Shown: positions 945 to 39,152 of the stretch, piece by piece
Numbering within the stretch: position 1 is the first letter of the stretch
Layout of the letters: every line of letters begins with the position of its first letter
From: an uncultured Spirochaetaceae bacterium
GTDB taxonomy: Bacteria; Spirochaetota; Spirochaetia; Sphaerochaetales; Sphaerochaetaceae
Length of the DNA: 64,000 bases
Assembly (NCBI GenBank): GCA_964589355.1
Contig: CAZPTG010000001.1
Span: 31-64,030 of the forward strand
Reading direction: 5' to 3'
The notes under the pieces: model-generated
What the model saw: the letters and a program-made list of their open reading frames with translations, nothing else
Told to the model about the DNA's origin: nothing
Database searches by the model: none
Position numbers and translations under genes: made by a program

Positions 945-958
945 ACCAAGGTAACCCC

Positions 959-1480
959 CTATTTCTCCATTTTCTTATCATTCTTAGCCTTTTTCTCAGT
1001 CTTTTTATTTCCTTTTTGTGAGCCTTTATTTTCTCCTTTATCCCTGCTTCTCCTGGCTCCATCATTTTTGCTGTTATGTAAATTAGTTCCATTGTTTTTT
1101 ATTTTTTCAACTGTCTCATCTACCTGTTTCATACTCCTAGGTAAATACAAATCATACTTAGACCTAGTATTATATAGATAATACTTAAATATCTTCCACC
1201 TTAATGGGAAAGCATCATTAGGATTCCCTTTACACTCTATTACAAACTTCTTATTTTTATAAGTACCAACAAAATCTGGAGTATAGGTCATTTTCCTTAC
1301 TTTCTCATTATTATATATAAAAGCTGGTATAATTTCAAACTTTTTACCCTCATATTCAGCCTTTATATTATTTTCTTTAAGTCTATTGTAACAATGAGCT
1401 TCCAACTTAGACTTAAACTTTATACCATCTACTGTTTTAATAGTAGCATTCTTTACCTTCCTATTCTTCTTTCGCTTCAT
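959..1480 (-). CDS. DUF1064-like PD-(D/E)XK nuclease (resolvase-like) with Lys-rich tail
   Basis: 173-aa ORF. TPDFV...FVIECKG is a PD-(D/E)XK-type core, and the N-terminal FKSKLEAHCYNRL pattern resembles DUF1064 phage nucleases. Confidence 0.45.
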   Translation of the reverse strand: MKRKKNRKVKNATIKTVDGIKFKSKLEAHCYNRLKENNIKAEYEGKKFEIIPAFIYNNEKVRKMTYTPDFVGTYKNKKFVIECKGNPNDAFPLRWKIFKYYLYNTRSKYDLYLPRSMKQVDETVEKIKNNGTNLHNSKNDGARRSRDKGENKGSQKGNKKTEKKAKNDKKMEK

Positions 1481-1553
1481 AATAATAAAATTAGGGGCTC
1501 AACATGAACCCACGTTGCATTTCGCATTATACGAAAGCCCCTAATTAAAGTTA

Positions 1554-2801: not shown

Positions 2802-2812
2802 ATTTTGAAAAT

Positions 2813-5927: not shown

Positions 5928-6087
5928 TCAATTGAGGTATATCCCCATCTTGAGCTCTTTTAGATACGCTTACATATTCTTTTCTACTACCCTTTTTATA
6001 CTTATGCCATATTAATTTGTTATCTTCTGTGATATCTTCGCCCTTGTCGTTAGTTGCGTATGTTACAAATGTATTATATTTTTTCAT
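5836..6087 (-). CDS. hypothetical protein (83 aa)
   Basis: ORF on the coding strand immediately downstream of the tRNA pair. Overlaps the long version of the primase ORF. Confidence 0.4.
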   Translation of the reverse strand: MKKYNTFVTYATNDKGEDITEDNKLIWHKYKKGSRKEYVSVSKRAQDGDIPQLNEPNSRTVSYYTRNIPKFGEERTEFIIFES

Positions 6088-6101
6088 GCTTATTAATTTA
6101 G

Positions 6102-6172
6102 TGCCGGGGCAAGGACTCGAACCTCGCTTCTCTAGGGTAAAATCCTAGGCTCTACCGTTGAGCTACCCGGCT
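6102..6172 (-). tRNA. tRNA, probable anticodon UUU (Lys), slightly non-canonical
   Basis: The minus strand reads (A)GCCGGGTAGCTCAACGGTAGAGCCTAGGATTTTACCCTAGAGAAGCGAGGTTCGAGTCCTTGCCCCGGCA. It has D stem GCTC/GAGC, anticodon stem CTAGG/CCTAG with loop AUUUUAC, and T arm CGAGG-TTCGAGT-CCTTG. I could not place positions 7/8 and 26 cleanly. Confidence 0.6.
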
Positions 6173-6178
6173 AGTAAC

Positions 6179-6570
6179 AAGCTCGAGCAGGGCTTGAACC
6201 TGCAACACTTACTTACTTTACTTGTTAGTAGTATTAAGTCGAACTTCAATTCAACGTGTCTATTACTGGATATTGCACTATAACTTAGTATTTATCGGGT
6301 CAATAGATTCTTTGAATGGATTCTATTACTACCATTTAGTGCGTCCTGACCGGTAATCAACTATACGTATTTAATATTCTTTGCAGGTATATAATACTTA
6401 GTGCACAGTTGTACCTTTGCTCGTTATTCTACGCCCACGAGCGTTGCTATCTTTATATCTTGTCATTGATATAAAAAGATTCAGTTTCTTAGGATAGCAA
6501 GGCCTCCCCCCAATTTCAAGCCTTAGGGGTCAAGGCTAATCAGTGCGTCTTCTGGTTCCGCTATCGAGCT
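6179..6570 (-). tRNA. 392-nt tRNA-like gene, candidate intron-containing tRNA (group I-like insert)
   Basis: The 5' end AGCTCGA-TA-GCGGAACCAGAAGACGC (Leu-like D arm) pairs with the 3' end GCAGG-TTCAAGC-CCTGC-TCGAGCT-T, giving a 7-bp acceptor and a canonical T arm. The interior carries an R-like CAGGACGCACTA and an S-like AAGTTATAGTGC that pair 6/6 (GCACTA/TAGTGC at 6337-6342 and 6275-6280), plus long hairpins. Splice sites and anticodon were not resolved. Confidence 0.5.
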
Positions 6571-6591
6571 TGTTATTATACTTGAGCTAGC

Positions 6592-6624
6592 AAAAAATAG
6601 GGCCTTGTTGTAAAACAAAGCCCT
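6592..6624 (-). terminator. intrinsic terminator after the SSB gene
   Basis: The minus strand reads AGGGCTTTGTT-TTAC-AACAAGGCCCT followed by ATTTTTTG. A second small UUCG-loop hairpin, CCCTCTTCGGAGGG, lies at 6640-6653. Confidence 0.75.
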
Positions 6625-6668
6625 GGGTATATATATGTACCCTCCGAAGAGGGATATTATATGCTAAT

Positions 6669-7277
6669 TTAGAATGGAACATTTTCATCAGTCTTTGAAC
6701 TCTTACCCTGTTCCTGGGTATTACTATCAAATGGGTTAGATGAAGTCTGAGTAGAATCAGGTTTATCTCTCTCCATTTTATCTATAGGCAAGATCTTAAT
6801 CTTTGATTGATCCGCAGGTATATTCATATTTTCTAGCCAATCAAATTTAGCGTAGCTAGGCAAAGTTGTATAGTTGTTAAAATCATATACTACTTTTACC
6901 CTAAGCTTATGATCTTTCCATTGATCTTGTTTAGATTTTAGTTTCTCAACTACTTGTTTAGCGAAACTCTCAAAATCTTCTGCTTTGAAGACGAACTCAT
7001 CTTCGCTCAAAATACCTGAGTTTACGGCAATATGCTTTATTCTAGCTAGTTGTTTATTAACTTTGCTTTCTTGATTCTCTCCATTGGGTTCCCATTCTGT
7101 TTTAGGTACTTGATTCCCATTCTCATCGGAGAAATAGAAAGCTAGAAATTTGTTACCATTCCTAGATTCGTTATATGATACATCACTTAGCACGATGTTT
7201 TCATGAATACCAGCTTCCAAATAAGCACTACCGTTACCCTCTTTTTGAACATCTTTGGTCATGTCGTATAATGGCAT
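6669..7277 (-). CDS. single-stranded DNA-binding protein (phage SSB-like)
   Basis: 202 aa. Has an acidic, disordered C-terminal tail ending DENVPF, like the bacterial SSB tip DDDIPF. Sits adjacent to the Sak4-like ATPase. Confidence 0.55.
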   Translation of the reverse strand: MPLYDMTKDVQKEGNGSAYLEAGIHENIVLSDVSYNESRNGNKFLAFYFSDENGNQVPKTEWEPNGENQESKVNKQLARIKHIAVNSGILSEDEFVFKAEDFESFAKQVVEKLKSKQDQWKDHKLRVKVVYDFNNYTTLPSYAKFDWLENMNIPADQSKIKILPIDKMERDKPDSTQTSSNPFDSNTQEQGKSSKTDENVPF

Positions 7278-19465: not shown

Positions 19466-19776
19466 TTTGCATAATTTTGGTTAGTAATCTTGTTTAAAAA
19501 CTTTAAAAGTTTCTTGTCTTGAATAACGGGCCCTAATCTGATGTTATTATCTTCATCTTTTATGTAGACTATTCTCCATTTAGTCTGCTTATGACCCGCT
19601 GTCTCTTTCCAAGCTGAGATCCCCCTGTCTTTTTGAAAGATCTTTTCTATTGGTATTTTGATCCCTAGTACTTTTTTAGCTTTGTACAGAATATTGCGCT
19701 GTATCAAATGTACTAAGGTACCTTCAGCTTTTATGCTTATTATAGGTATTAGATATTTATACTTTTTTACCTTCAT
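19462..19776 (-). CDS. hypothetical protein (104 aa)
   Basis: ORF on the coding strand, first gene after the terminator at 19790-19830. Confidence 0.55.
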   Translation of the reverse strand: MKVKKYKYLIPIISIKAEGTLVHLIQRNILYKAKKVLGIKIPIEKIFQKDRGISAWKETAGHKQTKWRIVYIKDEDNNIRLGPVIQDKKLLKFLNKITNQNYAK

Positions 19777-19789
19777 TTTTTAATAGTTT

Positions 19790-19830
19790 AAAAGGACTGG
19801 GGAGCTGGGACTTTCTTAAGCCCCAGTCCT
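19790..19830 (-). terminator. intrinsic terminator closing the 1.3-kb ORF-free island
   Basis: AGGACTGGGG-18 nt-CCCCAGTCCT, a 10-bp stem, followed on the minus strand by TTTTAAAC. Confidence 0.6.
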
Positions 19831-21088
19831 ATTTCCTTACTTAATATTAAGCTATGATTCAATGAAGTCATCCACCCAAGCTTTTAAAATGCACTTGGTA
19901 CCTCATGAACCACATCCACTCACAACCTCCTTAGCTTAATACTCTTATAGTCACTATTAGTCAGTCTCTTGCTGTGGTTAGGCAAGAAATACACTGACAT
20001 TTATTTGGGTATATATTATACAACAGCCTAACGGCTCCGTTGTAAACCCTTGTTTACTATTTGAATTTTGTAGAACTGTTAGAGGTCTGTTCTACTCTAG
20101 GGACTTAACTTTGTTCTCCACACTTACGGTTACCTGCTAAGTTTAAAGACCCTCTGTCCTACAGAGTATCGCATCATAAGTAGCTCCAAGCAAATATAAC
20201 TGGAAATGGCTGCATCAGTTATAAAGCGCACTACCATGATACTGGGCGGCATTACCGCCTCATTGATGTATGTATCCTCCACATTACTCGATGGTTGAAA
20301 CTGATAGGGATTGCGACCTATCGCAGGCTATTTATCAAACTTATTCCTAAGCCCCAACTTGACGATTCATGCTTCAGATCTTGGCTAGGGCGTATAACAT
20401 GTAGCTTCTTACCATACAAACGGTGAAGCACACGTATCCATCCCTCCTCCTCTTACCCCAGCCGAAATCACAGACGACAGTTCATATTTCGCTACTGCGG
20501 CTTGAACTACACCACTTTACTGGGGGATAAATTATCTACTCTGTACTCGGTACTCAAGGTCTATACAACGACTCTAAGGAATTTGGACCCCCCGTTACTA
20601 ACTTAATTCAAAGTTAAGTGTTCACTTGGCCTATTTACTAGGTAGCATCATCGTAGTCTTCTGGTGTTTCCAGCCCCACTGTATACAGTATATACAGCCC
20701 CGTATTCAGTTACTTCTTAGTTCAACCTTTTCGTAAAGGGAAGTGCGAGCATGCATAAGCTCTTAAGGGTAATACCCACACACTTAAGAGTACGGATTTG
20801 ACCATGGGTTGCGTTAGACCTATTTACCTTAATGTATCCATCGGGTCTGCCAGTTCCTCAGAGTGCGCTTAAATCAATAATTGGAACCCATCTTCCTAGG
20901 ATACTTCATAAGGAGAGTAGTTTTGTAGATATTGAGTAGCTAATAGGTAGTAGGCATTGTCCTTGGTATTCCCAACATTGCCGAATCCAAAGGCGGTAGG
21001 GTGAAGGTTCTCTCAAGAACTGCTACAAAAATTGAAGCCGAAATAGGCTCGCACCTAAATCGACTCAAACCACAAAAAATATTATGTG
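19831..21088 (-). ncRNA. large ORF-free, GC-enriched segment; candidate structured RNA of unknown class (strand inferred)
   Basis: No ORF of 60 aa or more on either strand across 1.26 kb. One sampled 60-mer is about 43% GC, against roughly one-third in the coding flanks. Many local hairpins, and a terminator on the minus strand at its end. Confidence 0.45.
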
Positions 21089-21613
21089 CTACCTTGGCCA
21101 GGTTTCAGACATTATAGCCAAGGCTTTTATTTTATCGAAGGTGAACCCGGTATAGCTGGGACCTCTTGCCATGATCTGTTTAGCTCTTACATTGTTAGCT
21201 GGTTCTATTTTACCACTATCAAGTAGTAGTAAATGGGGTATAAGTTCACCTTGTTCAGTTACTTCCGTCAGTTCTACATACCCAGTTTCAATATCTTTAT
21301 TGTGTAAGGGCACTAGCTCTGATGGTTTTTCTTGAAATGTTTTATTGGTTAGCTTAATCATTCTTACCATCAAGGATCTACTTCTCCTTGTTAAGCTTTT
21401 TCTTCTAGCATCTATCTCGCTTATGAGTAAACTCATATTGTTGATAGTACTAGAAGCTCTTGTAAACTTGGAGTTTTGACAGGTTGAACGTATTAAATAA
21501 ATGTCGTTAAATAACCGTAACCTTAAGCTCCTGAGCTCGTTGATACGCACGCTTACGAGTATTAACTCTATTGCGTCGTGTGAAGTGTTTCTTTCTTTTT
21601 TACTTTTTGACAT
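21089..21613 (-). CDS. hypothetical protein (174 aa)
   Basis: ORF on the coding strand. Confidence 0.55.
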   Translation of the reverse strand: MSKSKKERNTSHDAIELILVSVRINELRSLRLRLFNDIYLIRSTCQNSKFTRASSTINNMSLLISEIDARRKSLTRRSRSLMVRMIKLTNKTFQEKPSELVPLHNKDIETGYVELTEVTEQGELIPHLLLLDSGKIEPANNVRAKQIMARGPSYTGFTFDKIKALAIMSETWPR

Positions 21614-23282: not shown

Positions 23283-23308
23283 AAAAAGGGGGACTATTAA
23301 TGTCCCCC
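23283..23308 (-). terminator. intrinsic terminator closing the intron-containing ORF-free region
   Basis: The minus strand reads GGGGGAC-ATTAATA-GTCCCCC followed by TTTTTCT. Confidence 0.75.
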
Positions 23309-23782
23309 AAGACTCACCGATTAAGCAGCTGCTCTAAGCAATTGCATCATTTCAGATTCGCCATTTAAAAATTACTTACACCTTTCGTGCTAACTGGGTA
23401 CCATAACGTCAAAACCAATTAGGCCCCATATTTTTAACGTTGAAAACAAAGGGCAGGTTACACCCCAGGGGCTACCTGAGTTACCAACCTCCGTGAAATT
23501 ATAATATTTTCTCCTCACCTGCCCTACTGCTATCATTGGCAACGGGCTATTTTACTAGCCTGTATCCTATTTCCGATAATCGGATGTTTTTAGTATTAGC
23601 TTCTACCTTAAGAACATTTCTTAGATACTTTTGTATCTCCTTCTTACGTCTCTTTTTCTCCTTCCGTGGTAGTTTTAATGCTTTCATAATACAGTGTTTA
23701 GATAAGTGGAGCCTTCGGGACAATAGTTAAAACATCTGGAACAGTAACATTTCAAACCTGCGTCCGTATATTCAATAAAAAT
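23309..23782 (-). ncRNA. ORF-free, GC-enriched structured segment between the LAGLIDADG gene and the terminator
   Basis: No credible ORF. Has a long-range 8-bp pairing, GGGCAGGT...ACCTGCCC, and several hairpins. Could be the distal part of the group I intron, or a 3' exon RNA. Confidence 0.35.
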
Positions 23783-24178
23783 ATGGGTTGGGAATATATT
23801 ACAGGTTTCTTTGATGCTGACGGCACGATAACATTTTTACGTTTACATAAGAATTGCGAAAGATCACCTGTTATTTCTTTTAGTAATAACGAATATGACC
23901 TACTTGTGGAAATAGAAAAATTTATTAAACTTGAAACAGGTCATAATGGATTCATTTGTACTAAAAAATCAGGTGATTTTACTAATTATGAGCTGAGGTA
24001 TACTTATTTACCTAAATGTATAAACGTACTATCTTACATAAATTCCAGACATCCCAAGAAGCGTAGACGTATAGATATGATACTTAACGAATTGAAGAGT
24101 ATAACACCTCGTAATGGTAAATATACAAAAGAAACCTTATCAAAACGTCAAGAATTTACATCTCGCTTCTTCTCCTAA
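23783..24178 (+). CDS. LAGLIDADG homing endonuclease (single-motif type)
   Basis: 131 aa. The N-terminal ITGFFDADGTITF is a LAGLIDADG motif. It is the only plus-strand gene in the leftward module, and its stop lies inside the P9 hairpin of the antisense group I core. Confidence 0.8.
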   Translation: MGWEYITGFFDADGTITFLRLHKNCERSPVISFSNNEYDLLVEIEKFIKLETGHNGFICTKKSGDFTNYELRYTYLPKCINVLSYINSRHPKKRRRIDMILNELKSITPRNGKYTKETLSKRQEFTSRFFS

Positions 24179-24395
24179 TTTCTCAGGAGTATCGGACTAT
24201 CTCTTCACTTTTAAGTGCTGGGCGCTCTAGCCTGTATTCAGGTAGTCTCTGCACCTTCCCTCTTAAGGGCTTGGCTCAGGGTTGCCTTATCATTGTGACT
24301 TAGGTTTCCCTGAATTCACCCAGTTTAACTTCGACCTTTTGATCGAACCCGAGTCCGCTAAAGCCCTAGCTAGCAGCGTAAGTAAATCGTTTGTT
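24172..24395 (-). ncRNA. group I intron catalytic core (IC3-like)
   Basis: The minus strand carries P = AATTCAGGGAAAC, Q = AACCCTGAGC (P4 CAGGG/CCCTG), R = GGTGCAGAGACTAC and S = AAGAGATAGTCC (P7 GACTA/TAGTC). It also has P3 CTGGGTG/CGCCCAG, P8 CACTT-AA-AAGTG, P2 TTCGATC-AAAA-GGTCGAA and P9 CTCCT-GAGAAATT-AGGAG, all in canonical order. Confidence 0.8.
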
Positions 24396-24402
24396 AGTTA
24401 AG

Positions 24403-24846
24403 TTAGGTTATAAGGTTACTATATCCCTTAGTCTTTAACATTTCCCATTCTCTATAACATAGTCCTCTTTTGTGTGGATCCTTTATTTTACTTACCGGCA
24501 TTAAGTATCCCTCATGGACTGGTAGTACTATTTTACGACCGTAAAAGAATAAAGAATCTAAGCTATCTTCTTTATATGCTTCAGATAGCTCTAATACACT
24601 CTTAAGAAAATGTGTCTTGTTATAGAGTATGACTGCTCTTGGTACTTCTATTAAATGGTGTTCTTCACCAAATAAGCTACCAAAAGCATTGCTAACATTA
24701 GAGAAATGTAGCATCTTTTCTTTGTAGCTACACGCTACCTTACTTATTGAAGGTACATATTCTCCAATAAAGTCGGGCATGTCAATAATTACTAAACTGC
24801 CCTTACTTATTTTGTCTTTGCTTTGCTTTGAGTTAGATTTCCACAT
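24403..24846 (-). CDS. hypothetical protein (147 aa); possible 5' exon of the intron-bearing gene
   Basis: ORF on the coding strand whose stop lies a few nt upstream of the intron core. Confidence 0.5.
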   Translation of the reverse strand: MWKSNSKQSKDKISKGSLVIIDMPDFIGEYVPSISKVACSYKEKMLHFSNVSNAFGSLFGEEHHLIEVPRAVILYNKTHFLKSVLELSEAYKEDSLDSLFFYGRKIVLPVHEGYLMPVSKIKDPHKRGLCYREWEMLKTKGYSNLIT

Positions 24847-25110: not shown

Positions 25111-25278
25111 TTAGGATATTATTAAAGTTAATATTAGTATTACTACTGTAGCTAAAATTGCTACAATACCTACTACTTTTCTCGTTGAGGCTTCCTCCTT
25201 AGTCCCGTAAGGTAATAAGGCATAGCCCATTAAACTTAGGAATGCCATTGTTACAAGGAATGCAATTAATGCTGACAT
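25111..25278 (-). CDS. small membrane protein (55 aa)
   Basis: The start was moved to Met15 (25278) because the longer ORF would overlap the tRNA-like gene and the AAACCACAAAA box lies 9 nt upstream. Two hydrophobic segments. Confidence 0.5.
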   Translation of the reverse strand: MSALIAFLVTMAFLSLMGYALLPYGTKEEASTRKVVGIVAILATVVILILTLIIS

Positions 25279-25313
25279 AATATTTAATTTTTGTGGTTTG
25301 TAAATAAAAATAG

Positions 25314-25506
25314 TAGCCATACTGGGACTCGAACCCAGATCTCCCTATAATTTATTAGGGGCTCTTCCGCTACTCGGACTCTGCGTGAGGTGGCCTAGAA
25401 TGGATTGGATTTTAAGTCCAAATAAGTTCCATTCTCCTCTGCATATCCTTGGGGGTTACAGCCGATTCCTAGGAACTTGAGTGTAACACTTTTGAGCTAT
25501 ATGGCT
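25314..25506 (-). tRNA. 193-nt tRNA-like gene with a ~115-nt insertion in the D-loop region
   Basis: The 5' part is AGCCATA-TA-GCTC-A. The 3' part is GTAGCGGAA-GAGC-CCCTA-ATAAATTA-TAGGG-AGAT-CTGGG-TTCGAGT-CCCAG-TATGGCT-A. The acceptor is 7/7 and the T arm is canonical, with an 8-nt anticodon-type loop. The insert contains AGAATGGA...TTGGA-CTTAAAA-TCCAA...TCCATTCT. Confidence 0.45.
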
Positions 25507-25511
25507 AACAG

Positions 25512-25631
25512 CAGTCCGTGGAGGAGTCGAACCTCCGTTTCCGTGGGGCAAACCATGGTTGATACTCTAACATAGCTAGTGCATGTATAAAGTATTAACA
25601 GCTCGGCGTCCTACCACTAGACGAACGGACC
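25512..25631 (-). tRNA. 120-nt tRNA-like gene (Asn-type anticodon loop CUGUUAA) with a ~46-nt insertion after the loop
   Basis: The 5' part is GGTCCGT-TC-GTCT-AGTGGTA-GGAC-G-CCGAG-CTGTTAA. After the insert it continues (C)CACGG-AAAC-GGAGG-TTCGACT-CCTCC-ACGGACT-G. The anticodon stem pairs only 4/5. Confidence 0.45.
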
Positions 25632-25751
25632 ATAAGTTAGGGAGACCTGAAGTACGACTGCTGTATGGGCTGGTTACCACCGTGTCGTCGCCGATAGCCC
25701 TGATTGGGCTCCAAGATCTCTCTATATTTTTAACAATTTCATTTTTGTGGT

Positions 25752-25880
25752 TTATCTACAGAAAATCGCTAGTGCTATTAGTGCTATCCACATAATTGCT
25801 CCTAGTATGCATCCGTAGATATCTTGTCCATCATTAGGATCAAATTCTCTATCTTCGTCTCTTGATTGTTCCCAATCCAT
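25752..25880 (-). CDS. small membrane protein (42 aa)
   Basis: Own translation gives MDWEQSRDEDREFDPNDGQDIYGCILGAIMWIALIALAIFCR. Preceded by the AAACCACAAAA box at 8 nt. Below the ORF-track size cut-off. Confidence 0.45.
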   Translation of the reverse strand: MDWEQSRDEDREFDPNDGQDIYGCILGAIMWIALIALAIFCR

Positions 25881-25898
25881 ATTTTTAATTTTGTGGTT

Positions 25899-26519
25899 TT
25901 ATTTAATAGCTATCAGTACTCTGGCTGATTGCCTATCTTCCTCTTTGTTAGATGTATTAAACTTGTGTTCATCTATTAACTCTTCTATCTCTGTTGAGCC
26001 CCCTAGATGTACAAATACTTGTCCCTTGCGCATCTTCCTGAATAACTCATCAAATGTTTCTCTTGGTTCACCTGTGATATTAAAAGCATAAATAATGTCA
26101 GGATCTAACCTGAGTATTAAGTCTACTCTTTCCTGTACATATCCATTGTATATTTCTAGATGAGGCCTCATTATTGTAGCTATCTTACAAAGATTCCAAT
26201 CAGCTTCTATTCCATAAGTTTTCTTAAATATTATGCTGAATAAGTCTACAAGTAATCCTGTTCCACATCCTAAGTCAATTATGCTTTTACTTAATAAATC
26301 ACTTAAATTCCAACCAACTGTTAGTTGTAACTCTTTGTATATGTCAAATAGATCAAACCACCTTGTAGACATATACCCTGTAACATACCTGGCTCTACTT
26401 ACAAGCGCCATAGGTCCGTCACCTATCGGCTGTCTTAAGCTCATTTCGTACTGACAGTTTTCCTTATATATGAGAAGCTGTCTAAGTATGTCTATTTCTT
26501 TGTTAAAGTTTTTTTTCAT
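25899..26519 (-). CDS. class I SAM-dependent methyltransferase
   Basis: 206 aa. Motif I is IIDLGCGTGLLVDL. Confidence 0.75.
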   Translation of the reverse strand: MKKNFNKEIDILRQLLIYKENCQYEMSLRQPIGDGPMALVSRARYVTGYMSTRWFDLFDIYKELQLTVGWNLSDLLSKSIIDLGCGTGLLVDLFSIIFKKTYGIEADWNLCKIATIMRPHLEIYNGYVQERVDLILRLDPDIIYAFNITGEPRETFDELFRKMRKGQVFVHLGGSTEIEELIDEHKFNTSNKEEDRQSARVLIAIK

Positions 26520-26552
26520 CTTACTTAATTTTTGTGGTTTATTGTATAAGAT

Positions 26553-26610
26553 AAACAGGTAGATCCCACCCTCAATGAGCGCGTATCTGTCAGAATAGAT
26601 CTACCTGTTT
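26553..26610. repeat. 13-bp inverted repeat (aaacaggtagatc / gatctacctgttt) with 32-nt spacer
   Basis: Read directly at 26553-26565 and 26598-26610. Confidence 0.9.
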
Positions 26611-26648
26611 AGTTTTAATAATTTAACTGTTTAGTTTTAATAATTTAA
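26605..26648. repeat. perfect 22-bp tandem direct repeat x2
   Basis: ctgtttagttttaataatttaa occurs twice in tandem, followed by an A/T-only stretch. Confidence 0.9.
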
Positions 26649-26724
26649 TCTCTAAAATAATAATAAATAAATTTTAGTTGTTGTTAATTAAGGTGGCTTA
26701 AGTACTCTCATAATTACGGTATTT

Positions 26725-26741
26725 AAACTATTTGTTATAAT
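26725..26741 (+). promoter_or_regulatory. 17-nt box AAACTATTTGTTATAAT (TGnTATAAT-like), identical to the box before the late operon
   Basis: Exact 17/17 identity with 31156-31172. Contains an extended -10-like TGTTATAAT. Confidence 0.45.
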
Positions 26742-26952
26742 CTGGTGGACAAAAGTCCTCAAAAAAATACCTGTTATTGGAAAACAGTAGGGAAAGAGCT
26801 GTATCAGCTGTACTTCAGCATTCATACCCTTTCTTTGGGGTGACAACTATTTATGGTGTTGTCTGTATAGTTTTATTTAAAGACCTACTGTTTGTGCAGC
26901 AACCATCTGGCTTAATCCTACATGGGTTACTACAGTTCTGTTGTTTGTGGTT

Positions 26953-27135
26953 CTACTGCGTATGTTGCTCTCGTTTTAGCCTGCTAATCCGTTGTTGCAG
27001 TTCAACTATACGCTCTTCATCCCTTGGTACTCGCTTATCAATTACTTTCTTTCCACGAGTTCGCATATTTTTGGACTTAGGCCTATTCAGCTGACCTGAA
27101 AGCCTAGTTTTAGCTCTATCTAACCTGGTTTTCAT
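26953..27135 (-). CDS. basic hypothetical protein (60 aa)
   Basis: ORF on the coding strand. Arg/Lys-rich. Confidence 0.45.
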   Translation of the reverse strand: MKTRLDRAKTRLSGQLNRPKSKNMRTRGKKVIDKRVPRDEERIVELQQRISRLKREQHTQ

Positions 27136-27445
27136 ATTTAGCCTCCCTTTTTTTAGTTTTTACATACTTTCTGTACTTTTTGTCAATAGAACACCAGAAT
27201 AGTTCCCTTTCGATTGATGCTGCCCATGGAAATGCTTGTGATATAGCATTTAGATCCCCGTTTATATTTAATGGGCTGTTAGTACTCGTAAATGGGTCAC
27301 TCTTTGATGCTTTTAACTTAGATGTTTTAGAAGCAAAGAAGTATGTTAGATCAATAAACCTATTTAATAAACTCTCTTTCTTTAAAAACGAGACTAGTAG
27401 CTTATTATCCAAGGTCTTGCCGGATATTTGCCACCTACTTATCAT
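27116..27445 (-). CDS. hypothetical protein (109 aa from Met38)
   Basis: The start was placed at 27445 because it forms an ATGA overlap with the stop of the upstream ORF (27442). Confidence 0.5.
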   Translation of the reverse strand: MISRWQISGKTLDNKLLVSFLKKESLLNRFIDLTYFFASKTSKLKASKSDPFTSTNSPLNINGDLNAISQAFPWAASIERELFWCSIDKKYRKYVKTKKREAKYENQVR

Positions 27446-27846
27446 AATCTCCACCACTTCCTGGTTTGCAATGGGATCATATAACCATCTTCCTTGATAG
27501 CAAATTGGTATTCCCAACCTTTTAGCATCACAAAGAAATCTGTGATCTTGTGCCAATTAGTTGACTTAGGCCATTTTGTACCTGTTTGCTTAACCTTGTA
27601 ATGAGTAGCTTTAAGCAGCCTATAATAATTAGGTTGGCAATAGCCTATTACACCAATAGGAAGACGTTTACCTACTTCTACATAGGCTGTCTTATAATCC
27701 TTTGTAGGTATTAACCCAGTAATTACTACAGCATGTCCTGCTAATTCTTCTGTAGGGTTGTCCTTGAGTACGTCAGGTAGTAATAATACTCGATCCCCAA
27801 TCTGTACTTTGTTGGAATTTAACCATACTAATGCTTTTGATGTCAT
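27442..27846 (-). CDS. hypothetical protein (134 aa)
   Basis: ORF on the coding strand, with the box 9 nt upstream. Confidence 0.6.
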   Translation of the reverse strand: MTSKALVWLNSNKVQIGDRVLLLPDVLKDNPTEELAGHAVVITGLIPTKDYKTAYVEVGKRLPIGVIGYCQPNYYRLLKATHYKVKQTGTKWPKSTNWHKITDFFVMLKGWEYQFAIKEDGYMIPLQTRKWWRL

Positions 27847-27870
27847 ACATCTATATTTTGTGGTTAATAA

Positions 27871-28113
27871 TCAGCTCCCCATACCTAACTGGGGAGCTTC
27901 ACTTTTTGCAATCTCTTCATCAATTTCCACTACTTTCTTGTCAATGTAGCTGATGAGGGAGAATCTGTATTCTTCTGCAAACAATGGGTTGTAGTTTTTG
28001 TTGTTTAACAACCTATTATTCCTAAATACTATTCTACCTGTACTGATTGCTTCCCTATCCCTGAGAAGCTTGGCTTTACGATTATTAAGTCTTTCTAATC
28101 CTTTTTCAATCAC
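27871..28113 (-). CDS. hypothetical protein (80 aa), GTG start
   Basis: ORF on the coding strand with no ATG available. Two boxes lie upstream. Confidence 0.45.
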   Translation of the reverse strand: MIEKGLERLNNRKAKLLRDREAISTGRIVFRNNRLLNNKNYNPLFAEEYRFSLISYIDKKVVEIDEEIAKSEAPQLGMGS

Positions 28114-28168
28114 TTTATTTTGTGGTTTAATTTAACTTATTTATAACTTTGTAGCTTTGTGGTTTAGT

Positions 28169-28690
28169 TTAACAGATGTGTGGTTTTCCACTACTTTGCC
28201 CTACTATGGCAACTCGCCCCTTTTTCTTAGCAAGTCTGTAGAATTCTTTCTCTTCTTCAGTAGCAGGTCTATACTCTGCTTCAAACCAAGCAGGCTTGTT
28301 TAGGTGTCTTAAATTTCTAATTGGATCACCAGTAAAGGCTTCACATAATATTAAATCACTGTACCATTTTGCTTCCAATATTTTAGTAACTGTACCTTCA
28401 ATATTACCACTGTGGTAATGTGTAATTACAACTATTTCCCCCCTTTTAGGTTTATAGTTCCAGGTTAACATTTTATTGTTGACAGACCACAAGGTGGGAT
28501 AAGCATGTGGATTTACATTGTCTATCATAGCAATACCTTGGTTTGCAACTTCTTCATAGAAGTCTTTTGTCACTGGTGTACCGAATAGGTAATCCATCTC
28601 ACCTTCACTGTTAAAACGTGCTTTAGTTCTAAAATTAGAACCAAACTCTTTCATGAGTTCTTCCTTAGTTTTAAATCTGTAAATCTTCAT
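28169..28690 (-). CDS. hypothetical protein (173 aa)
   Basis: ORF on the coding strand, with a variant box upstream. Confidence 0.6.
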   Translation of the reverse strand: MKIYRFKTKEELMKEFGSNFRTKARFNSEGEMDYLFGTPVTKDFYEEVANQGIAMIDNVNPHAYPTLWSVNNKMLTWNYKPKRGEIVVITHYHSGNIEGTVTKILEAKWYSDLILCEAFTGDPIRNLRHLNKPAWFEAEYRPATEEEKEFYRLAKKKGRVAIVGQSSGKPHIC

Positions 28691-28718
28691 AATCTTATAG
28701 TTTTGTAGTTAATAGTAT

Positions 28719-28925
28719 TTAATGATTTAAAAGATAGTTAATACACTTGGGAATCTTCTTATCTTCATAGAATGGGTCAAATTTTGTAGCTGTAATTTCC
28801 ATTGCTTTGTGATAGAAGTATGTACTTAACATTAGGTAGAATGCTTGACCCTTCCTTAAATTAGGATTTTGTTCTAATAAATCCTCACGTTTCTTTATTA
28901 CTAATGTTATTTGCTCTCTAGTCAT
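28719..28925 (-). CDS. hypothetical protein (68 aa)
   Basis: ORF on the coding strand. Confidence 0.5.
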   Translation of the reverse strand: MTREQITLVIKKREDLLEQNPNLRKGQAFYLMLSTYFYHKAMEITATKFDPFYEDKKIPKCINYLLNH

Positions 28926-28938
28926 ACTATTGATTTGA

Positions 28939-29199
28939 TTATATAATAAATTCTTTAATTAATAAGTATATTATATATAATAGTAAACATACTGTTACAA
29001 ATGCTACTATAATGATTACCCCTAAGTACATAGTTTCAAGGACTGAACTGTCGCATGCTAACAAATCTATTTCATCTACATGTGTAAAGTATAGGATTAG
29101 TTTCCCTATACCCCACCCACATACAGCTGTGATTGCTAATTCAGCTGCTATTATTATAGGTACTAACAATACCCTAAATACTATTTTTATTATTTTCAT
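28939..29199 (-). CDS. small membrane protein (86 aa, 3 predicted TM segments)
   Basis: The hydrophobic segments are VLLVPIIIAAELAITAVCGW and LGVIIIVAFVTVCLLLYIIYLLI. The box lies 2 nt upstream. Confidence 0.55.
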   Translation of the reverse strand: MKIIKIVFRVLLVPIIIAAELAITAVCGWGIGKLILYFTHVDEIDLLACDSSVLETMYLGVIIIVAFVTVCLLLYIIYLLIKEFII

Positions 29200-29210
29200 A
29201 GTTTTGTGGT

Positions 29211-29594
29211 TTAAAGTTCAGTGTCAACTAATCTTTCAAATACCATTTCCCTGTTCTCTTCATCCAGCCTATCAAATTCATGTAAAGGTGTGTGGAGTCT
29301 TTTTACACTAAACTCTACCGAATTTAAGACATTAATAACAGTAACTTGTTTTATATCACTAGGATGCTCTATAAGTTGTTCCCTTGCTTGTGTATCAAAC
29401 CAGGTTAGTTCGTTGTAGTTAATATATCCTATCCTAAACTTTATCCCATCTTTAATGACAAATACGCAAAGGTACCTACTGGGATAGACTGAGCTTGTTA
29501 ATTCAGGGTCATTATGGCTGTGAGATTCAATACAATAATTAATATCATCAATGTTAATTATTGTACCTCTTCCAATTAATTCAATTTTATTCAT
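29211..29594 (-). CDS. hypothetical protein (127 aa)
   Basis: ORF on the coding strand, with the box 9 nt upstream. Confidence 0.6.
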   Translation of the reverse strand: MNKIELIGRGTIINIDDINYCIESHSHNDPELTSSVYPSRYLCVFVIKDGIKFRIGYINYNELTWFDTQAREQLIEHPSDIKQVTVINVLNSVEFSVKRLHTPLHEFDRLDEENREMVFERLVDTEL

Positions 29595-30038
29595 AGTTGT
29601 ATATTTTTGTGGTTTATAGCTATTAGTATTATATAGGTTGGGTTATTGATTATGTGAAATTAGGGCTGATTGAGGCGTGAGTTTAGACGACCTATAACAC
29701 TCTCCCTCATTTGCCCATAAATGCCCTTTTTAAGCGATTTAAAGCCTTCATAGGGTAGTTTAGGTACTACAGGTCTATTTAGACTATAAACAGCTTATAT
29801 GGCTTTATTTGGGGATATGCCAACATACTTCAGACAGTCCAAATTTGGACTAAACTTTCAGATCTGATAGTACTCAATTTAGTTATCAGTACTTACTATT
29901 TATCCTTATTGCCTTTTATAATTACTATTATAAGCATGGCAAATAATGTCATAATTATAACAGCTGTTTCTAATTCCATGATTAATTAATTTAGTTATTG
30001 GTACTTATTTTGTAGGAATACCATGATTTAGCTTAGTG

Positions 30039-35445: not shown

Positions 35446-36012
35446 ATGGAATTATTTGATATAGAGAATGATAGGTTAGTACTCAATCCCACAAATCTTT
35501 ATATACCACCTTTTAAAAAGATATGGGATAGGGACAAATCTAAAGGTAAGAGTAAAGCATACAATGAGATTGCTTATGTTACATTTCTTTGTAATATGTC
35601 TAGGAAGAATCCATACAATGCTTACTCTGATTTTGATAAAGATAAAAAGATAAGGGAAGATCTATTTGGTAGTCCCGATTGGGAGCCTAATAACTTAGTG
35701 CAAGAGGCTATAGAGAAGTATAATGAGATGCAGAAAACTACTAACTCTAGACTGCTGCAATCTGCTAAAAACGGTGCGCAGAAGCTAGCTAATTATTTTG
35801 ATAGGGTAGATTTTGAAGCTATAGACAATTATGGTAAACCTAAGTATTCAGCTAGGGACTATGCATTTAATCTTAAAGAAGTAGGCAATATAGTTAAGTC
35901 TTTGACACAGTTAGAGAAGCAAGTAGAGAAAGAACAGATGGAATTAAGTGAAGCTAGGGGTGGAAGTGAAATTGGTATATACGAGATACCTGATAAACAA
36001 TCATCAGAATAA
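35446..36012 (+). CDS. possible terminase small subunit (188 aa)
   Basis: Position only: it lies directly upstream of TerL and is stop/start-coupled to it. Confidence 0.35.
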   Translation: MELFDIENDRLVLNPTNLYIPPFKKIWDRDKSKGKSKAYNEIAYVTFLCNMSRKNPYNAYSDFDKDKKIREDLFGSPDWEPNNLVQEAIEKYNEMQKTTNSRLLQSAKNGAQKLANYFDRVDFEAIDNYGKPKYSARDYAFNLKEVGNIVKSLTQLEKQVEKEQMELSEARGGSEIGIYEIPDKQSSE

Positions 36013-39000
36013 TGGAAGATACATACGAAGTAAGGGTTAGAAAATTTAAAAATACTGATAAATTTAGGCCAGCTGCTAAGTATTTTGAAGAAAACAGCAT
36101 GTATACTGCAGCTCCCCCAGGTACTACAGAATATAAGCGTTATTGGGACAGAGAAATGAAACGTAGTACCGATGGCTTTACTGCTGAAGATGGTGATAGT
36201 ATTACAGGCTATCACTATTTTTATTTAAATTATTGCCCCATAATGAAAGTAGTTGAGAAAGAAGTTCCTGATGGTAGTGGTGGTACTAAGGTTATACCTA
36301 CTAGGGACAGGGGATTTCCAAATTTCTGGGACTATGATAAGGAGTATTTTGACGCAGTAGAAGAAGCAGAAAATAGGGGTAGTCATATGGCTGTGCTTAA
36401 AAAGCGTAGGTCAGGTTATTCGTATAAAGTTGCTGCAATGTTGAATAGAAATTTCTTCCTTATACCCGAATCGATATCTTATGCTATAGCCTCAGAAAAG
36501 GAATTTTTAACGAAAGATGGTGTACTGTCCAAGGCTTGGGATATGATGAGTTGGATAGATGATAATACAGCTTGGACTAAGAAGAGACAAGCAATAGACA
36601 CCAATATGCATAGAAGGGCTTCTTTCTATACTACTAAGGGAGGCAGTAAAATAGAGAAGGGATATAAATCTGAAATTATAGGTGTTACTCTAAAGAATGA
36701 TCCTCAAAAAGCTAGAGGTAAAGCAGCTAAACTAATTGTCTGGGAAGAATCAGGTAAATTTCCAAATTTGCTTCAATCGTGGCAGATAGCTCAACCTTCG
36801 GTAGAACAGGATGGTGTGGCTTTTGGTACAATGATTTCTTTTGGTACGGGAGGTTGTTTAACAGCTGGGAACAAAGTATTTAATAATAAAGGTGAATTAA
36901 TAAATATAGAAGATTTAGTTAAAAATGAAGGTATAATTGGTTTTGATGAAATGTCTGGTAATTATAGTAAAGAAGATATAGCTTATCAACAACCATATAC
37001 TGAAAAAGAAACTATTAAATTAACTACTGATTCTGGTAGAACAATAGAGTGCAGTACGGATCATCCTATTTATTCTCCAATATTTAAAGATAAAGGATGG
37101 AATAAATATCACAAAAGGCAGAATAGAAGAATAATAGGACATGACTGGAAAGAAGCTGGTAATATAGCTGAAGGTGATTTAATATCAGTTATAGACAAAT
37201 TACCAATATTTGGCGATAAAGAGGTAGAAGACGCTAGACTATTAGGCATGCTAGTAGGGGATGGTACTTATGGTAATAGTACTCCTAAATTTGCTAATTG
37301 TGACAAAGAGCTTTGGGATTATATAGATGATAATTATTCCAATGCTGTATATTTAGAGAGGGAAAATAAAGATAAGAGAATATATAAAGAAGCTGGTATA
37401 TTAAACTTTAATGATACTCTTAGATATCATGGTATATTTGGACAAACTAAATCTGATAAAAGATTGCCAAAAGATGTACATAAATGGAATAAAAAATCTA
37501 TTTCAGAGTTTGTTGCTGGATTGTATGATGCTGATGGGTATATAAGTTTTAGAGTAAATAATAAAAGAAAAGGTAAATATTTATCTGAAATAAGTTTGAG
37601 CCAAAATAATTTAGAGATATTAAAAGAGTTACAACTAATATTACAAAAATTTGGCATACATGGTAAATTAAGAACCAGGCAACCTAGAGATAATAATCCA
37701 AAAGATGTCAATGCTTGGCATGAATTTAATATCAGTGATTGTAGAAGTTTAACTTTGTTTGTTGAAAATTTTAATTTACTTATAAAAAATAAGCAAGAAA
37801 AATTAAATAATATTTGGGATTATAATAAAGACAAAAAACCCCAAAGAAAATATAATGGACTAAGGCATGAGAAAGTTATATCTATTAAACATACTGGTAT
37901 TAATCCTGTTTATAATTTAACAGCTTCAAATACTAATACTTATTTAGGTAATGGTGTAATTACGCATAATACAGAAGAGGCAGACTATTCTAGCTTAAAA
38001 GAGTTGTTTTATAAACCTAGGGCTTATAATGTTCTACCTATAAGGAATGTATGGGATGATGGTGCTTATGAAACAGCATGTGGCTTTTTTGTACCTAACT
38101 ATATGAATATGCAAGGCTTTATGAATGAGGATGGTAATTCCTCAATAGATGAAGCTATAGAAGAATCTAATAGGCAACGTAAGGAGGTAGAAGAGCATTC
38201 TGGTGATAAGAATTCTGTAGATAGGTATATTGCGGAACACCCAAATACGCCTAGAGAAGCTACCTTACAGTTGACTGGTAATATATTCCCTAAGAAAGAA
38301 CTACAGGCACAGAAAGCTAGGATAATGGGGGATAAGAAGCTGAAAAACTATAAACAGGTGGGTAGTCTTGAGTATGATGGGGCTGGTAGACTAAGGTGGA
38401 ACCAGCTATCTGGAGCTAAAGATATAGAGAAGTTTCCTTTAGATAAAAATGATAGCAAAGAAGGGGCTATAGTTATATGGGAGCATCCTGTTGAAGATCC
38501 TCCGTATGGTCTATATATAGCTGGTATTGACCCTTATGACCATGATGATTCTGGTACTTCTTCTTTAGGGAGCACTATTATATATAAAAGATTTCAGTCA
38601 TTTGAACAGTACTATGATATAATAGTAGCTGAATATACAGGTAGACCAGATACGGCTAATGAGTATTATGAAAATGTCTACAGGCTACTTAAATACTATA
38701 ATGCAAGGGCTTTATACGAGAATGAGCGTAAAGGTATGTACGCTTATTTTGCTAATAAGGGTGTTGATTATATGTTAGCTAATCAGCCTGATATTATACA
38801 TGACATTGTGCAAGTATCTAAGGTACAACGTAAGAAGGGTATTCATATGACTAAAGGTATAAAAGATTGGGCTGAACGAGAAATACGAGATTGGCTTAAT
38901 GAAGAATATTCACCAGGCCATAAGAATTTGGAGAAAATATTCTCATTACCATTGTTAGATGAGTTAATATCTTATAACGATAAGGGCAACTTTGACCGAG

Positions 39001-39152
39001 TAATTTCATTAATGATGGTAATGTTGTATAAAAAAGAATTACATAATGTACATGTTAAGGATAAGAAAAGGAGTGAGAAAACTATTGATAAGTTCTTTCA
39101 AACTAGGTTTTTCACTGAAGATAGAAAATATAATTTTAACCGGTTAAGATAA
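36012..39152 (+). CDS. terL: terminase large subunit, intein-containing precursor (1046 aa; 674-aa extein)
   Basis: P-loop-like KKRRSGYSYK, Walker B-like LIVWEESGKF and nuclease-type IAGIDPYDHDD. Followed by the portal-size gene. Interrupted by a Hint/LAGLIDADG block. Confidence 0.85.
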   Translation: MEDTYEVRVRKFKNTDKFRPAAKYFEENSMYTAAPPGTTEYKRYWDREMKRSTDGFTAEDGDSITGYHYFYLNYCPIMKVVEKEVPDGSGGTKVIPTRDRGFPNFWDYDKEYFDAVEEAENRGSHMAVLKKRRSGYSYKVAAMLNRNFFLIPESISYAIASEKEFLTKDGVLSKAWDMMSWIDDNTAWTKKRQAIDTNMHRRASFYTTKGGSKIEKGYKSEIIGVTLKNDPQKARGKAAKLIVWEESGKFPNLLQSWQIAQPSVEQDGVAFGTMISFGTGGCLTAGNKVFNNKGELINIEDLVKNEGIIGFDEMSGNYSKEDIAYQQPYTEKETIKLTTDSGRTIECSTDHPIYSPIFKDKGWNKYHKRQNRRIIGHDWKEAGNIAEGDLISVIDKLPIFGDKEVEDARLLGMLVGDGTYGNSTPKFANCDKELWDYIDDNYSNAVYLERENKDKRIYKEAGILNFNDTLRYHGIFGQTKSDKRLPKDVHKWNKKSISEFVAGLYDADGYISFRVNNKRKGKYLSEISLSQNNLEILKELQLILQKFGIHGKLRTRQPRDNNPKDVNAWHEFNISDCRSLTLFVENFNLLIKNKQEKLNNIWDYNKDKKPQRKYNGLRHEKVISIKHTGINPVYNLTASNTNTYLGNGVITHNTEEADYSSLKELFYKPRAYNVLPIRNVWDDGAYETACGFFVPNYMNMQGFMNEDGNSSIDEAIEESNRQRKEVEEHSGDKNSVDRYIAEHPNTPREATLQLTGNIFPKKELQAQKARIMGDKKLKNYKQVGSLEYDGAGRLRWNQLSGAKDIEKFPLDKNDSKEGAIVIWEHPVEDPPYGLYIAGIDPYDHDDSGTSSLGSTIIYKRFQSFEQYYDIIVAEYTGRPDTANEYYENVYRLLKYYNARALYENERKGMYAYFANKGVDYMLANQPDIIHDIVQVSKVQRKKGIHMTKGIKDWAEREIRDWLNEEYSPGHKNLEKIFSLPLLDELISYNDKGNFDRVISLMMVMLYKKELHNVHVKDKKRSEKTIDKFFQTRFFTEDRKYNFNRLR
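36855..37970 (+). mobile_element. 372-aa class 1 intein with LAGLIDADG homing endonuclease domain, inserted in TerL
   Basis: The N-extein FGTGG is followed by CLTAGNKVF. The intein ends GNGVITHN and is followed by a +1 Thr (TEEADY). Two dodecapeptide motifs are present, LLGMLVGDGTY and FVAGLYDADGYI. Confidence 0.9.

Follow-up and report, generated by a model that had tools for sequence, protein, structure and literature searches.

Can the tRNA genes of phages carry inserts that are not self-splicing introns, and do such genes still work as tRNA genes? This question is raised by a 64,000-nt stretch of DNA (contig CAZPTG010000001.1, positions 31 to 64,030; hereafter the window), where two tRNA-derived genes, A and B, lie in tandem on the minus strand, 5 nt apart, with inserts at position 37/38 in gene A and in the D-loop in gene B. 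To our knowledge, the tRNA genes of bacteria and their phages are taken as uninterrupted, apart from self-splicing group I (rarely group II) introns. An earlier note on this DNA, made from its sequence alone, had pointed out the pair and the two insert sites; both were confirmed, and all the helices it had named were found in place on the minus strand. A third insert-bearing gene (gene C), which the note did not mention, was detected elsewhere in the window. In our best reading of these sequences, the inserts would be short and non-autocatalytic and would turn over quickly between related phages. There is, in our judgement, about an even chance that genes A, B and C are selected phage tRNA genes with intervening sequences of the enigmatic kind described from Lak megaphages; excision of these sequences would be a further, putative step.

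The window itself is a crAss-like gut or environmental phage resembling the Suoliviridae. Its major capsid protein is 63% identical to that of cr118_1 (Suoliviridae), and a portal protein, a large terminase and a polymerase of family A could be identified as well. A host of the Bacteroidota type is expected.

Gene A, an interrupted gene with a tRNA-Glu-type body

Gene A retains an acceptor stem (GGTCCGT/ACGGACT, with G.U as pair 1-72), a D arm (GTCT-AGTGGTA-GGAC) and a T arm (GGAGG-TTCGACT-CCTCC). The discriminator is G, and CCA is not encoded. The Rfam tRNA family (RF00005) matched the gene end to end with 44.6 bits (gathering score, 29 bits), skipping 51 nt in the anticodon loop. ARAGORN, in turn, found it only when introns were allowed, and then called it a tRNA-Asn(GUU) interrupted at 37/38 by 49 nt; with default settings, the program called neither gene A nor gene B. 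The interruption falls after A37, between CTGTTAA and CACGG. The gap had previously been estimated at about 46 nt, which the count of 49 nt corrects, while the proposed fold-back of the insert onto the anticodon itself holds (GTTAATACT/AGTATCAAC, eight of nine pairs, with one A.C). The anticodon stem CCGAG/CACGG is paired in four of its five positions and contains an A.A mismatch.

As it stands, gene A has no continuous anticodon arm in the sense of a 5-bp stem that closes a loop of 7 nt, with U33 and a purine at position 37. Such an arm appears only after exact excision: removal of the 49 nt leaves the canonical 7-nt loop CUGUUAC (GUU), and the exon junction expected in the exactly excised RNA is GCCGAGCTGTTA joined to CCACGGAAACGG.

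The loop had been likened to that of tRNA-Asn, an assignment that the rest of the gene does not bear out. Among IMG/VR phage tRNAs, 118 shared the D arm of gene A, and 109 of these were tRNA-Glu, all of normal length. The D-arm 21-mer matched a single GTDB genome, where it lies in a tRNA-Glu(UUC), and the orthologue of gene A in a related phage reads UUC (see below). Because of these three observations, gene A, judged by its sequence, does not descend from a tRNA-Asn; the body belongs to the tRNA-Glu type, and nothing but the CUGUUA after the stem speaks for Asn. No UUC occurs in the insert, so gene A cannot yield a tRNA-Glu.

Gene B and its look-alike of a tRNA-Leu(UAA) anticodon arm

The acceptor stem of gene B is perfect (AGCCATA/TATGGCT, 7/7, with C-G as pair 3-70) and is followed by UA-GCTC; the T arm is canonical. 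The insert separates A17 from G18G19 of the D-loop, after which GAGC follows. Thus, the D-loop position, the perfect acceptor and the 8-nt anticodon loop described earlier all stand, while the insert, once given as about 115 nt, measures 121 nt. Gene B is a weaker match to the tRNA family than gene A: it scored 30.4 bits, barely over the gathering score, in the sensitive search only, with 126 nt skipped in the D-loop. A reading offered by ARAGORN, tRNA-Leu(CAA) with a 125-nt intron, was rejected as a forced fit.

The anticodon-type hairpin CCCTA-ATAAATTA-TAGGG has an 8-nt loop, and nucleotide 26 is missing. Because this loop is abnormal, gene B is doubtful as a decoder, and it is probably not a normal one. 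Should gene B be spliced, the expected exon junction is TAGCTCAAAA joined to GGAAGAGCC.

In the centroid fold, gene B keeps the cloverleaf and adds two hairpins formed by the insert, the second of which is a long rod (Table 1) with an inner helix AGAATGGA/TCCATTCT (25428-25435/25397-25404). The insert appears to leave the tRNA part of the fold undisturbed, as the mean pair probability of the four cloverleaf helices was 0.87 with the native insert and 0.67 with a shuffled one. The insert-bearing gene of the related phage L112 behaved likewise (0.93 against 0.68 with its D-loop insert shuffled).

The tip of the rod had been noticed as a look-alike of the tRNA-Leu(UAA) anticodon arm, and the likeness is specific. 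In about 2 Mb of loci, all 11 of the 11 other occurrences of its 13-mer GGACTTAAAATCC were anticodon arms of genuine class II tRNA-Leu(UAA) genes. A further suggestion, which linked this mimic with the nearby group I intron (at a distance of 1 kb), is not supported: that intron sits in a protein-coding context and not in a tRNA-Leu-like one. The possibility that the insert is a buried tRNA-Leu was ruled out, the flanks of the 13-mer not being Leu-like. In the phage, TTA is the main Leu codon, and AAA, AAT and GAA are also among the most used codons; codon usage would thus suit a demand for decoders of AAU, AAA, GAA and UUA.

The shared tRNA framework and gene C

Nucleotides that form the tertiary contacts of tRNA (U8, A14, R15-Y48, G18G19, T54-A58) are all kept in genes A and B, as the L-shape requires. 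We also searched the window with our own scanner, which looks for a T arm and a 7-bp acceptor within 450 nt. Its background was about 0.4 hits per shuffled window, from which it follows that the tRNA-like genes are not chance occurrences; many of its 'long tRNA' hits inside tRNA arrays are artefacts of adjoining normal tRNAs. Four tRNA-shaped genes are present in the window, while default ARAGORN reports one tRNA there.

Gene C lies 8 nt upstream of a normal tRNA-Lys(UUU) gene (6171..6101, minus strand). Its acceptor pairs fully (AGCTCGA/TCGAGCT, 7/7), its T arm is GCAGG-TTCAAGC-CCTGC and its D arm is Leu-like, without G18G19. The 8-nt sequence GACGCACT is directly repeated at 6542-6549 and 6338-6345. 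Gene C folds considerably better than its shuffled versions (z-score -4.16), and whole-gene folding z-scores of the insert-bearing genes range from -2.2 to -4.2. No Rfam family, group I introns included, was found in region 6000-6750 at E<=10, and blastn detected no match to gene C in GenBank phages. For genes B and C, ARAGORN was also rerun after deletion of each possible segment, which proved too permissive to define exon borders or tRNA identity. Copies of the inserts, or long stretches complementary to them, were found nowhere else in the window, which speaks against repeats and antisense RNAs.

Related phages keep the tRNA body and differ in the insert

Two contigs of a related phage, L112 and L127, were recovered by scanning metagenomes for a T loop with the AAACCACAAAA box after it, the box being a motif that precedes the cluster (see below). 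The polymerase PolA of this phage is 70% identical to that of the window phage, and other proteins are 30-50% identical. Positions 22-182 of L112 hold a homologue of the gene A body, with exons about 80% identical, in the genomic place that gene B occupies in the window. Base pairs were maintained by paired changes at 3-70 (C-G in L112, U-A in gene A), 49-65 (A-U, G-C), 51-63 (G.U, A-U) and 29-41 (A-U, G-C), as well as in the tertiary pair 15-48 (A-U, G-C). The anticodon arm of the L112 homologue is intact (CCAGG-AUUUCAA-CCUGG) and makes it a tRNA-Glu(UUC). It too carries an insert, of about 88 nt, which is located in the D-loop after G18G19U20 and is unrelated in sequence to that of gene A.

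The body is hence conserved with compensatory changes, while the sequence and the position of the insert differ between related phages. On this comparison of sequences, it can be argued that selection acts on the tRNA framework and that the inserts look like fast-turnover passengers, not conserved cargo. The same comparison also speaks against simple decay. As for the relatives as a source of simpler forms, covariation with the L112 body was seen, and no uninterrupted copy of gene A was met among metagenome contigs or GTDB genomes.

Contigs L112, L127 and L008, the last from a further related phage, each break off, at their starts, in this tRNA-like locus or immediately beside it. Since three independent contigs break there, strain-level heterogeneity at the locus is suggested. 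The 352-amino-acid open reading frame (ORF) near the locus has a single homologue, P0003 on L008, and L008 stops exactly at the box past gene B. No homologue was found for the 206-amino-acid methyltransferase-like ORF nearby. Phage cr118_1 has neither homologous early genes nor tRNAs, and scans of IMG/VR gave no match for the exact T arm of gene A, for its D arm together with CTGTTA, for the neighbouring proteins or for L112-specific sequence. The lineage of the window phage is rare. Its DNA is present, 100% identical, in at least eight contigs from several samples; look-ups of identical proteins returned only this identical DNA, and hence no microdiversity. One contig of the Joint Genome Institute (JGI), L257 (3300007712), is 100% identical to window positions 1-1525, and past the left edge the lengths of its neighbouring genes differ from those in contig L256 of the European Nucleotide Archive, which indicates that a second strain exists.

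Similar genes in other phage contigs

Interrupted tRNA genes were not confined to this group of phages. Contig L267 (IMGVR_UViG_3300003691_000013; 33% GC) contains two insert-bearing tRNA genes in tandem (911-1039 and 1059-1182), 19 nt apart, neither of which is found by default ARAGORN. The first has a perfect cloverleaf, an Rfam score of 49 bits and an insert of 54-56 nt at 36/37-37/38. In the second, the body is of the Glu type and the D arm is that of gene A; in place of an anticodon loop, this gene has about 55 nt. For gene A and the first L267 gene, folding predicts that the insert is paired with the region of the anticodon, whose stem it opens. On L230 (IMGVR_UViG_3300015263_000944), a 239-kb contig of a jumbo phage, three adjoining tRNA-like genes of 123-144 nt lie at 2800-3552; two of them share a near-identical insert of about 60 nt (z-score 42), and a related insert is present in the third. 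To judge from these copies, the L230 insert resembles a small mobile element that is moving from one tRNA gene to another. Intron-like mobile elements are indicated by this shared insert and by the repeated use of position 37/38 in phages independent of each other. In total, some 15-20 insert-bearing candidates were seen against 909 normal tRNAs in the fetched loci (about 2 Mb), which are a biased sample.

A different arrangement was observed on contig L009 (IMGVR_UViG_3300025924_000004), where a bare tRNA minihelix at about 888-940 consists of a 7-bp acceptor (GACTGTA/TACAGTC) and a T arm; the D and anticodon arms are both absent. It is placed between the stop codon of one gene and the AAACCACAAAA box of the next, which hints at a tRNA-like punctuation of transcripts.

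Possible explanations

If the RNAs are indeed processed as tRNAs, the cluster and its operon would be transcribed together, starting at the AAACCACAAAA-box unit or reading through it. Each RNA would then take the tRNA L-shape, the acceptor, D and T helices being present and the contacts being kept in the sequence. General tRNA biology would have RNase P trim the 5' ends and a nuclease the 3' ends, and CCA would have to be added, because none is encoded. A usable loop in gene A requires exact removal of the 49 nt. Should gene A decode, host or phage proteins would need to cut and rejoin the RNA, since it has no group I core and no bulge-helix-bulge (BHB) motif. The inserts of gene B and L112 are situated at the outer corner of the D-loop, folding independently and leaving the cloverleaf undisturbed, and may just be tolerated.

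Several observations weigh against this scheme of selected, putatively excised intervening sequences. We know of no splicing machinery for such inserts in bacteria, and no RNA ligase or splicing endonuclease domain was found in 40 scanned proteins of the window or is on record, as a precomputed Pfam match, in the 10 kb past its left edge, DNA that makes up all but about 20 kb of the 97,237-nt genome. The GUU anticodon (Asn) of gene A disagrees with its Glu-type body (G73 fits both), and its anticodon stem has the A.A mismatch. An uninterrupted or spliced gene A was absent from JGI metagenome contigs and from 185,579 GTDB genomes, weak evidence in so thinly sampled a lineage. The 8-nt anticodon loop of gene B, AUAAAUUA, permits no reading with both U33 and a purine at 37, and gene C has no recognisable anticodon arm. 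Furthermore, the inserts of genes A, B and C share no significant sequence similarity, only weak 6-mer sharing, and so do not show a single mobile family. Finally, the compensatory changes between gene A and L112 could predate the insertions, a caveat on the argument against decay.

It is possible, if unlikely, that the RNAs are never spliced and act as tRNA-like non-coding RNAs, in which the tRNA top half would be no more than a scaffold for processing and stability, and the inserted domain would do the work. The rod of gene B, for example, could display the Leu(UAA) arm as a decoy that diverts an anticodon nuclease of the host or an enzyme that modifies tRNAs, and the hairpin of gene A could hide GUU. 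This would agree with the top half being kept in all three genes while the anticodon arm is interrupted in A and departs from the norm in B and C, with the structured inserts, with a rod tip that matches genuine tRNA-Leu(UAA) genes exactly over the 13 nt of the anticodon-arm core, with the bare minihelix of L009 ahead of the same box and with the missing spliced form of gene A. A working cargo should, however, stay conserved, and the inserts of gene A and L112 differ in sequence and position while the body is kept; moreover, the L112 homologue has a perfect Glu(UUC) anticodon arm, gene A without its insert regains a canonical 7-nt loop, and no target or partner emerged, the rest of the window showing no long complementarity. 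Alternatively, the genes may be tRNA pseudogenes, disrupted by insertion and drifting, in a phage that relies on host tRNAs. We hold this to be distinctly improbable. The missing UUC and the A.A mismatch of gene A would fit decay, as would the 8-nt loop and absent nucleotide 26 of gene B, the lack of G18G19 and of an anticodon arm in gene C, the breaks in the relatives' contigs, and a 20-nt stretch of the leader ahead of gene A that matches the 3' part of gene B in 17 of 20 positions and hints at past duplication and decay. Yet the acceptor stems are intact in all three genes (7/7 in B and C; seven pairs, including G1.U72, in A), so are all T arms (5/5), and A and B retain the tertiary contacts. 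At 30-50% protein identity, neutral DNA should have lost its resemblance, whereas the exons of gene A and L112 remain about 80% identical with compensatory pairs; about 480 nt of junk in three genes would be unexpected in a compact phage genome, and the D-loop inserts are compatible with the cloverleaf.

Two known types of intron fit much less well. That the inserts are reduced group I introns, splicing themselves or helped in trans by the resident intron, is very improbable. Such an intron does exist only 1 kb away (24172-24466, minus strand; RF00028, 97.3 bits), at the end of or just after a 147-amino-acid ORF, with a LAGLIDADG endonuclease ORF (23783-24178, plus strand) abutting its 3' end from the opposite strand; the related phage L008 has none at this place. 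The pairing of the gene A insert with the last nucleotides of the 5' exon also resembles a P1. Against this, inserts of 49 and 121 nt compare with about 200 nt for the smallest known group I cores, Intron_gpI had no match in 25200-25900 or 6000-6750 at E<=10, the inserts are not similar to the resident intron, and no guanosine-binding P7 can be recognised in them; the remark that they are too short for group I self-splicing was therefore justified. Nor do we know of the D-loop as a group I site in tRNAs. Introns of the archaeal or eukaryal type, cut at a BHB by a splicing endonuclease, are hardly credible here. Position 37/38 is the canonical site of such introns, gene A shows pairing between anticodon and insert, and D-loop positions like that of gene B are known among the non-canonical ones in Archaea. 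The setting, however, is a crAss-like phage of Bacteroidota-type hosts, and threading gene A by hand gave no BHB (3-nt/4-bp/3-nt), as C32-U35 (CUGU) against insert nucleotides 47-44 yields two of four pairs (nucleotides 44-47 read UUUG). The 3' junction of gene A is in a single strand of 11-12 nt, and no helix joins the two junctions of gene B.

The earlier note had left the matter as an either/or, namely another processing mechanism or RNAs that are not conventional tRNAs, and this still stands. A more far-reaching reading, which we regard as rather unlikely, would be that Bacteroidota phages or their hosts excise short tRNA inserts, at 37/38 and in the D-loop, by a protein-dependent route that is neither group I nor BHB and acts at multiple positions as in Archaea, the inserts being small mobile elements that spread among phage tRNA genes. 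As a second twist, the gene B rod with the perfect Leu(UAA) arm at its tip might act as a decoy, directed at an anticodon nuclease or a tRNA-modifying enzyme of the host.

Candidates from the transfer-messenger RNA (tmRNA) or Y-RNA-like families were rejected. ARAGORN gave no tmRNA apart from a forced low-threshold call, no tmRNA family matched at E<=10, and pair 3-70 of gene B is C-G, not G.U. A 'permuted tmRNA' at L112:2029-2504 was a weak, sub-threshold match that the syntenic region of the window (about 23284-23485, see below) did not reproduce.

Relation to known systems

The Lak megaphage report was the only one found in the literature for inserts in phage tRNA genes that are not group I introns. 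Lak megaphages carry 'enigmatic introns' of 79-114 nt at 37/38 in their Tyr, Phe, Thr and Gly tRNAs; these inserts have no Rfam match, insert-free alleles exist, and the inserts form one family, whose members combine a hairpin at the 5' side with an A-rich linker and, internally, a tRNA-like minihelix that has a GGTTCGA T-loop (Devoto et al. 2019, PMC6784885). Common to both systems are phages of Bacteroidota-type hosts, inserts that make bacterial tRNA finders miss the genes (in our case gene A, at 37/38), the lack of an Rfam family, a splicing route that is not established and the presence of several affected tRNAs per genome. Gene A would count as Lak-type (37/38 +/-1, no Rfam family), whereas gene B, interrupted in the D-loop, would not. 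The differences are nevertheless considerable: the 49-nt insert of gene A and the hairpins of the 121-nt insert of gene B contain no T-loop, the inserts of the window are related neither to each other nor to those of Lak, gene B and L112 have theirs in the D-loop, and no insert-free allele was found. What is new relative to Lak is the crAss-like genome, the D-loop position, the differing insert sites in orthologues of sister phages, three insert builds in one genome and the Leu(UAA) mimic.

Group I introns of tRNA genes, such as those of cyanobacterial tRNA-Leu(UAA) and Azoarcus tRNA-Ile, resemble our case in that a tRNA gene is interrupted in bacteria and in that the insert of gene A pairs with the end of the 5' exon. 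They differ in having a catalytic core, whereas the inserts lack one and have no RF00028 match; in size, at least about 200 nt against 49-121 nt; and in position, within or next to the anticodon instead of 37/38 and the D-loop. Archaeal introns, removed by EndA at a BHB, are similarly short, occupy several positions including 37/38 and the D-loop, and turn over rapidly; unlike them, gene A cannot be threaded into a BHB, and the host domain is bacterial. No splicing endonuclease of the EndA type is known to us in Bacteria.

Foreign RNA flanked by tRNA parts also has precedents. In the engineered 'tRNA scaffold' RNAs of Ponchon and Dardel, the tRNA top half reportedly flanks a foreign structured RNA and provides RNase P and 3' processing as well as stability. 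In other virus groups, tRNA-linked non-coding RNAs comprise the species 1 and 2 RNAs of phage T4 and the tRNA-miRNA RNAs of murine herpesvirus 68 (MHV68). Compared with scaffold RNAs, the foreign part here differs from one related phage to the next, a point against a selected cargo.

Layout of the locus and other features of the window

The cluster lies on the minus strand in the order box, 110-nt leader, gene A, 5-nt spacer, gene B, 14 nt and next box (Table 1). The AAACCACAAAA box, a copy of which had been noted ahead of the leader with its mini-ORF, occurs in eight exact copies in the window, where 0.09 would be expected. The copies span 25289-29615 on the minus strand, seven of the eight in one operon, with a lone plus-strand copy at 21067. 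Within the operon, the distance from box to start codon varies from 2 to 12 nt. The box was found in two distant relatives as well (L008:1; L112:189 and 496, with L127:33). In L112, an additional ORF has a box on either side, and it is missing from L127; because of this, the boxes may delimit gene cassettes. The leader, by contrast with an earlier proposal of a structured RNA segment at 25632-25740, did not fold better than its shuffled versions (z-score -1.29) and had no Rfam match.

Table 1. Coordinates of the tRNA-like genes and associated elements in the window
Feature	Position	Strand	Basis or remark
Gene A, tRNA-derived, 120 nt, Glu-type body	25512..25631	-	Rfam, ARAGORN intron mode, L112 homologue
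Gene A, 5' part	25631..25596	-	
Gene A, insert (49 nt, at 37/38)	25595..25547	-	
Gene A, 3' part	25546..25512	-	
Gene A, insert hairpin	25547..25595	-	anticodon GUU+A pairs with AGUAUCAAC (8/9), then 11-nt 3' tail
Gene B, tRNA-derived, 193 nt	25314..25506	-	Rfam sensitive search, centroid fold
Gene B, 5' part	25506..25490	-	
Gene B, D-loop insert (121 nt)	25489..25369	-	
Gene B, 3' part	25368..25314	-	
Gene B insert, first hairpin GUUACA...UGUAAC	25455..25489	-	fold
Gene B insert, long rod, about 24 bp in five helices	25376..25448	-	fold
Rod tip TTGGA-CTTAAAA-TCCAA, copy of tRNA-Leu(UAA) anticodon arm	25405..25421	-	13-mer search
Gene C, tRNA-like, 391 nt	6180..6570	-	scanner; about 315 nt of extra structured RNA
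AAACCACAAAA box ahead of the RNA cluster	25743..25753	-	exact copy
Leader between box and gene A	25632..25742	-	6-codon mini-ORF; possible 7-bp stem GAGATCT/AGGTCTC; not an established RNA element
Next AAACCACAAAA box, 14 nt past gene B	25289..25299	-	precedes gene of a 55-amino-acid membrane protein starting at 25278

Some other features of the window, whose GC content is about 35%, were recorded in passing. A stretch of 1.3 kb without called genes (approximately 19776-21089) belongs to its GC-richest part, and the lone plus-strand box lies there. Non-coding DNA at about 23284-23485 (minus strand), upstream of a 182-amino-acid ORF, is 69% identical over 211 nt to L008:1443-1650, and the proteins of the two phages are only 35-46% identical; judged from this conservation, the stretch may be an RNA or a regulatory element. 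The large terminase gene (36012-39152, plus strand; 1046 amino acids) contains an intein, with precomputed Pfam matches to Intein_splicing and LAGLIDADG_3, and its middle 250 residues match unrelated PHROGs. Such an arrangement is typical of delta-group crAss-like phages.

Implications

Standard bacterial tRNA finders miss genes of this kind. The tRNA inventories of phages are thus underestimated, and the same holds where crAss-like phages are searched for 'missing' suppressor tRNAs. Should the inserts be excised, infected Bacteroidota would possess an RNA cut-and-join activity that was not previously known. If they are kept, the phages would produce tRNA-shaped RNAs with added domains, which may act as decoy, scaffold or regulator. 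The locus described here, together with L112, L267 and L230, provides concrete sequences on which these possibilities can be tested.

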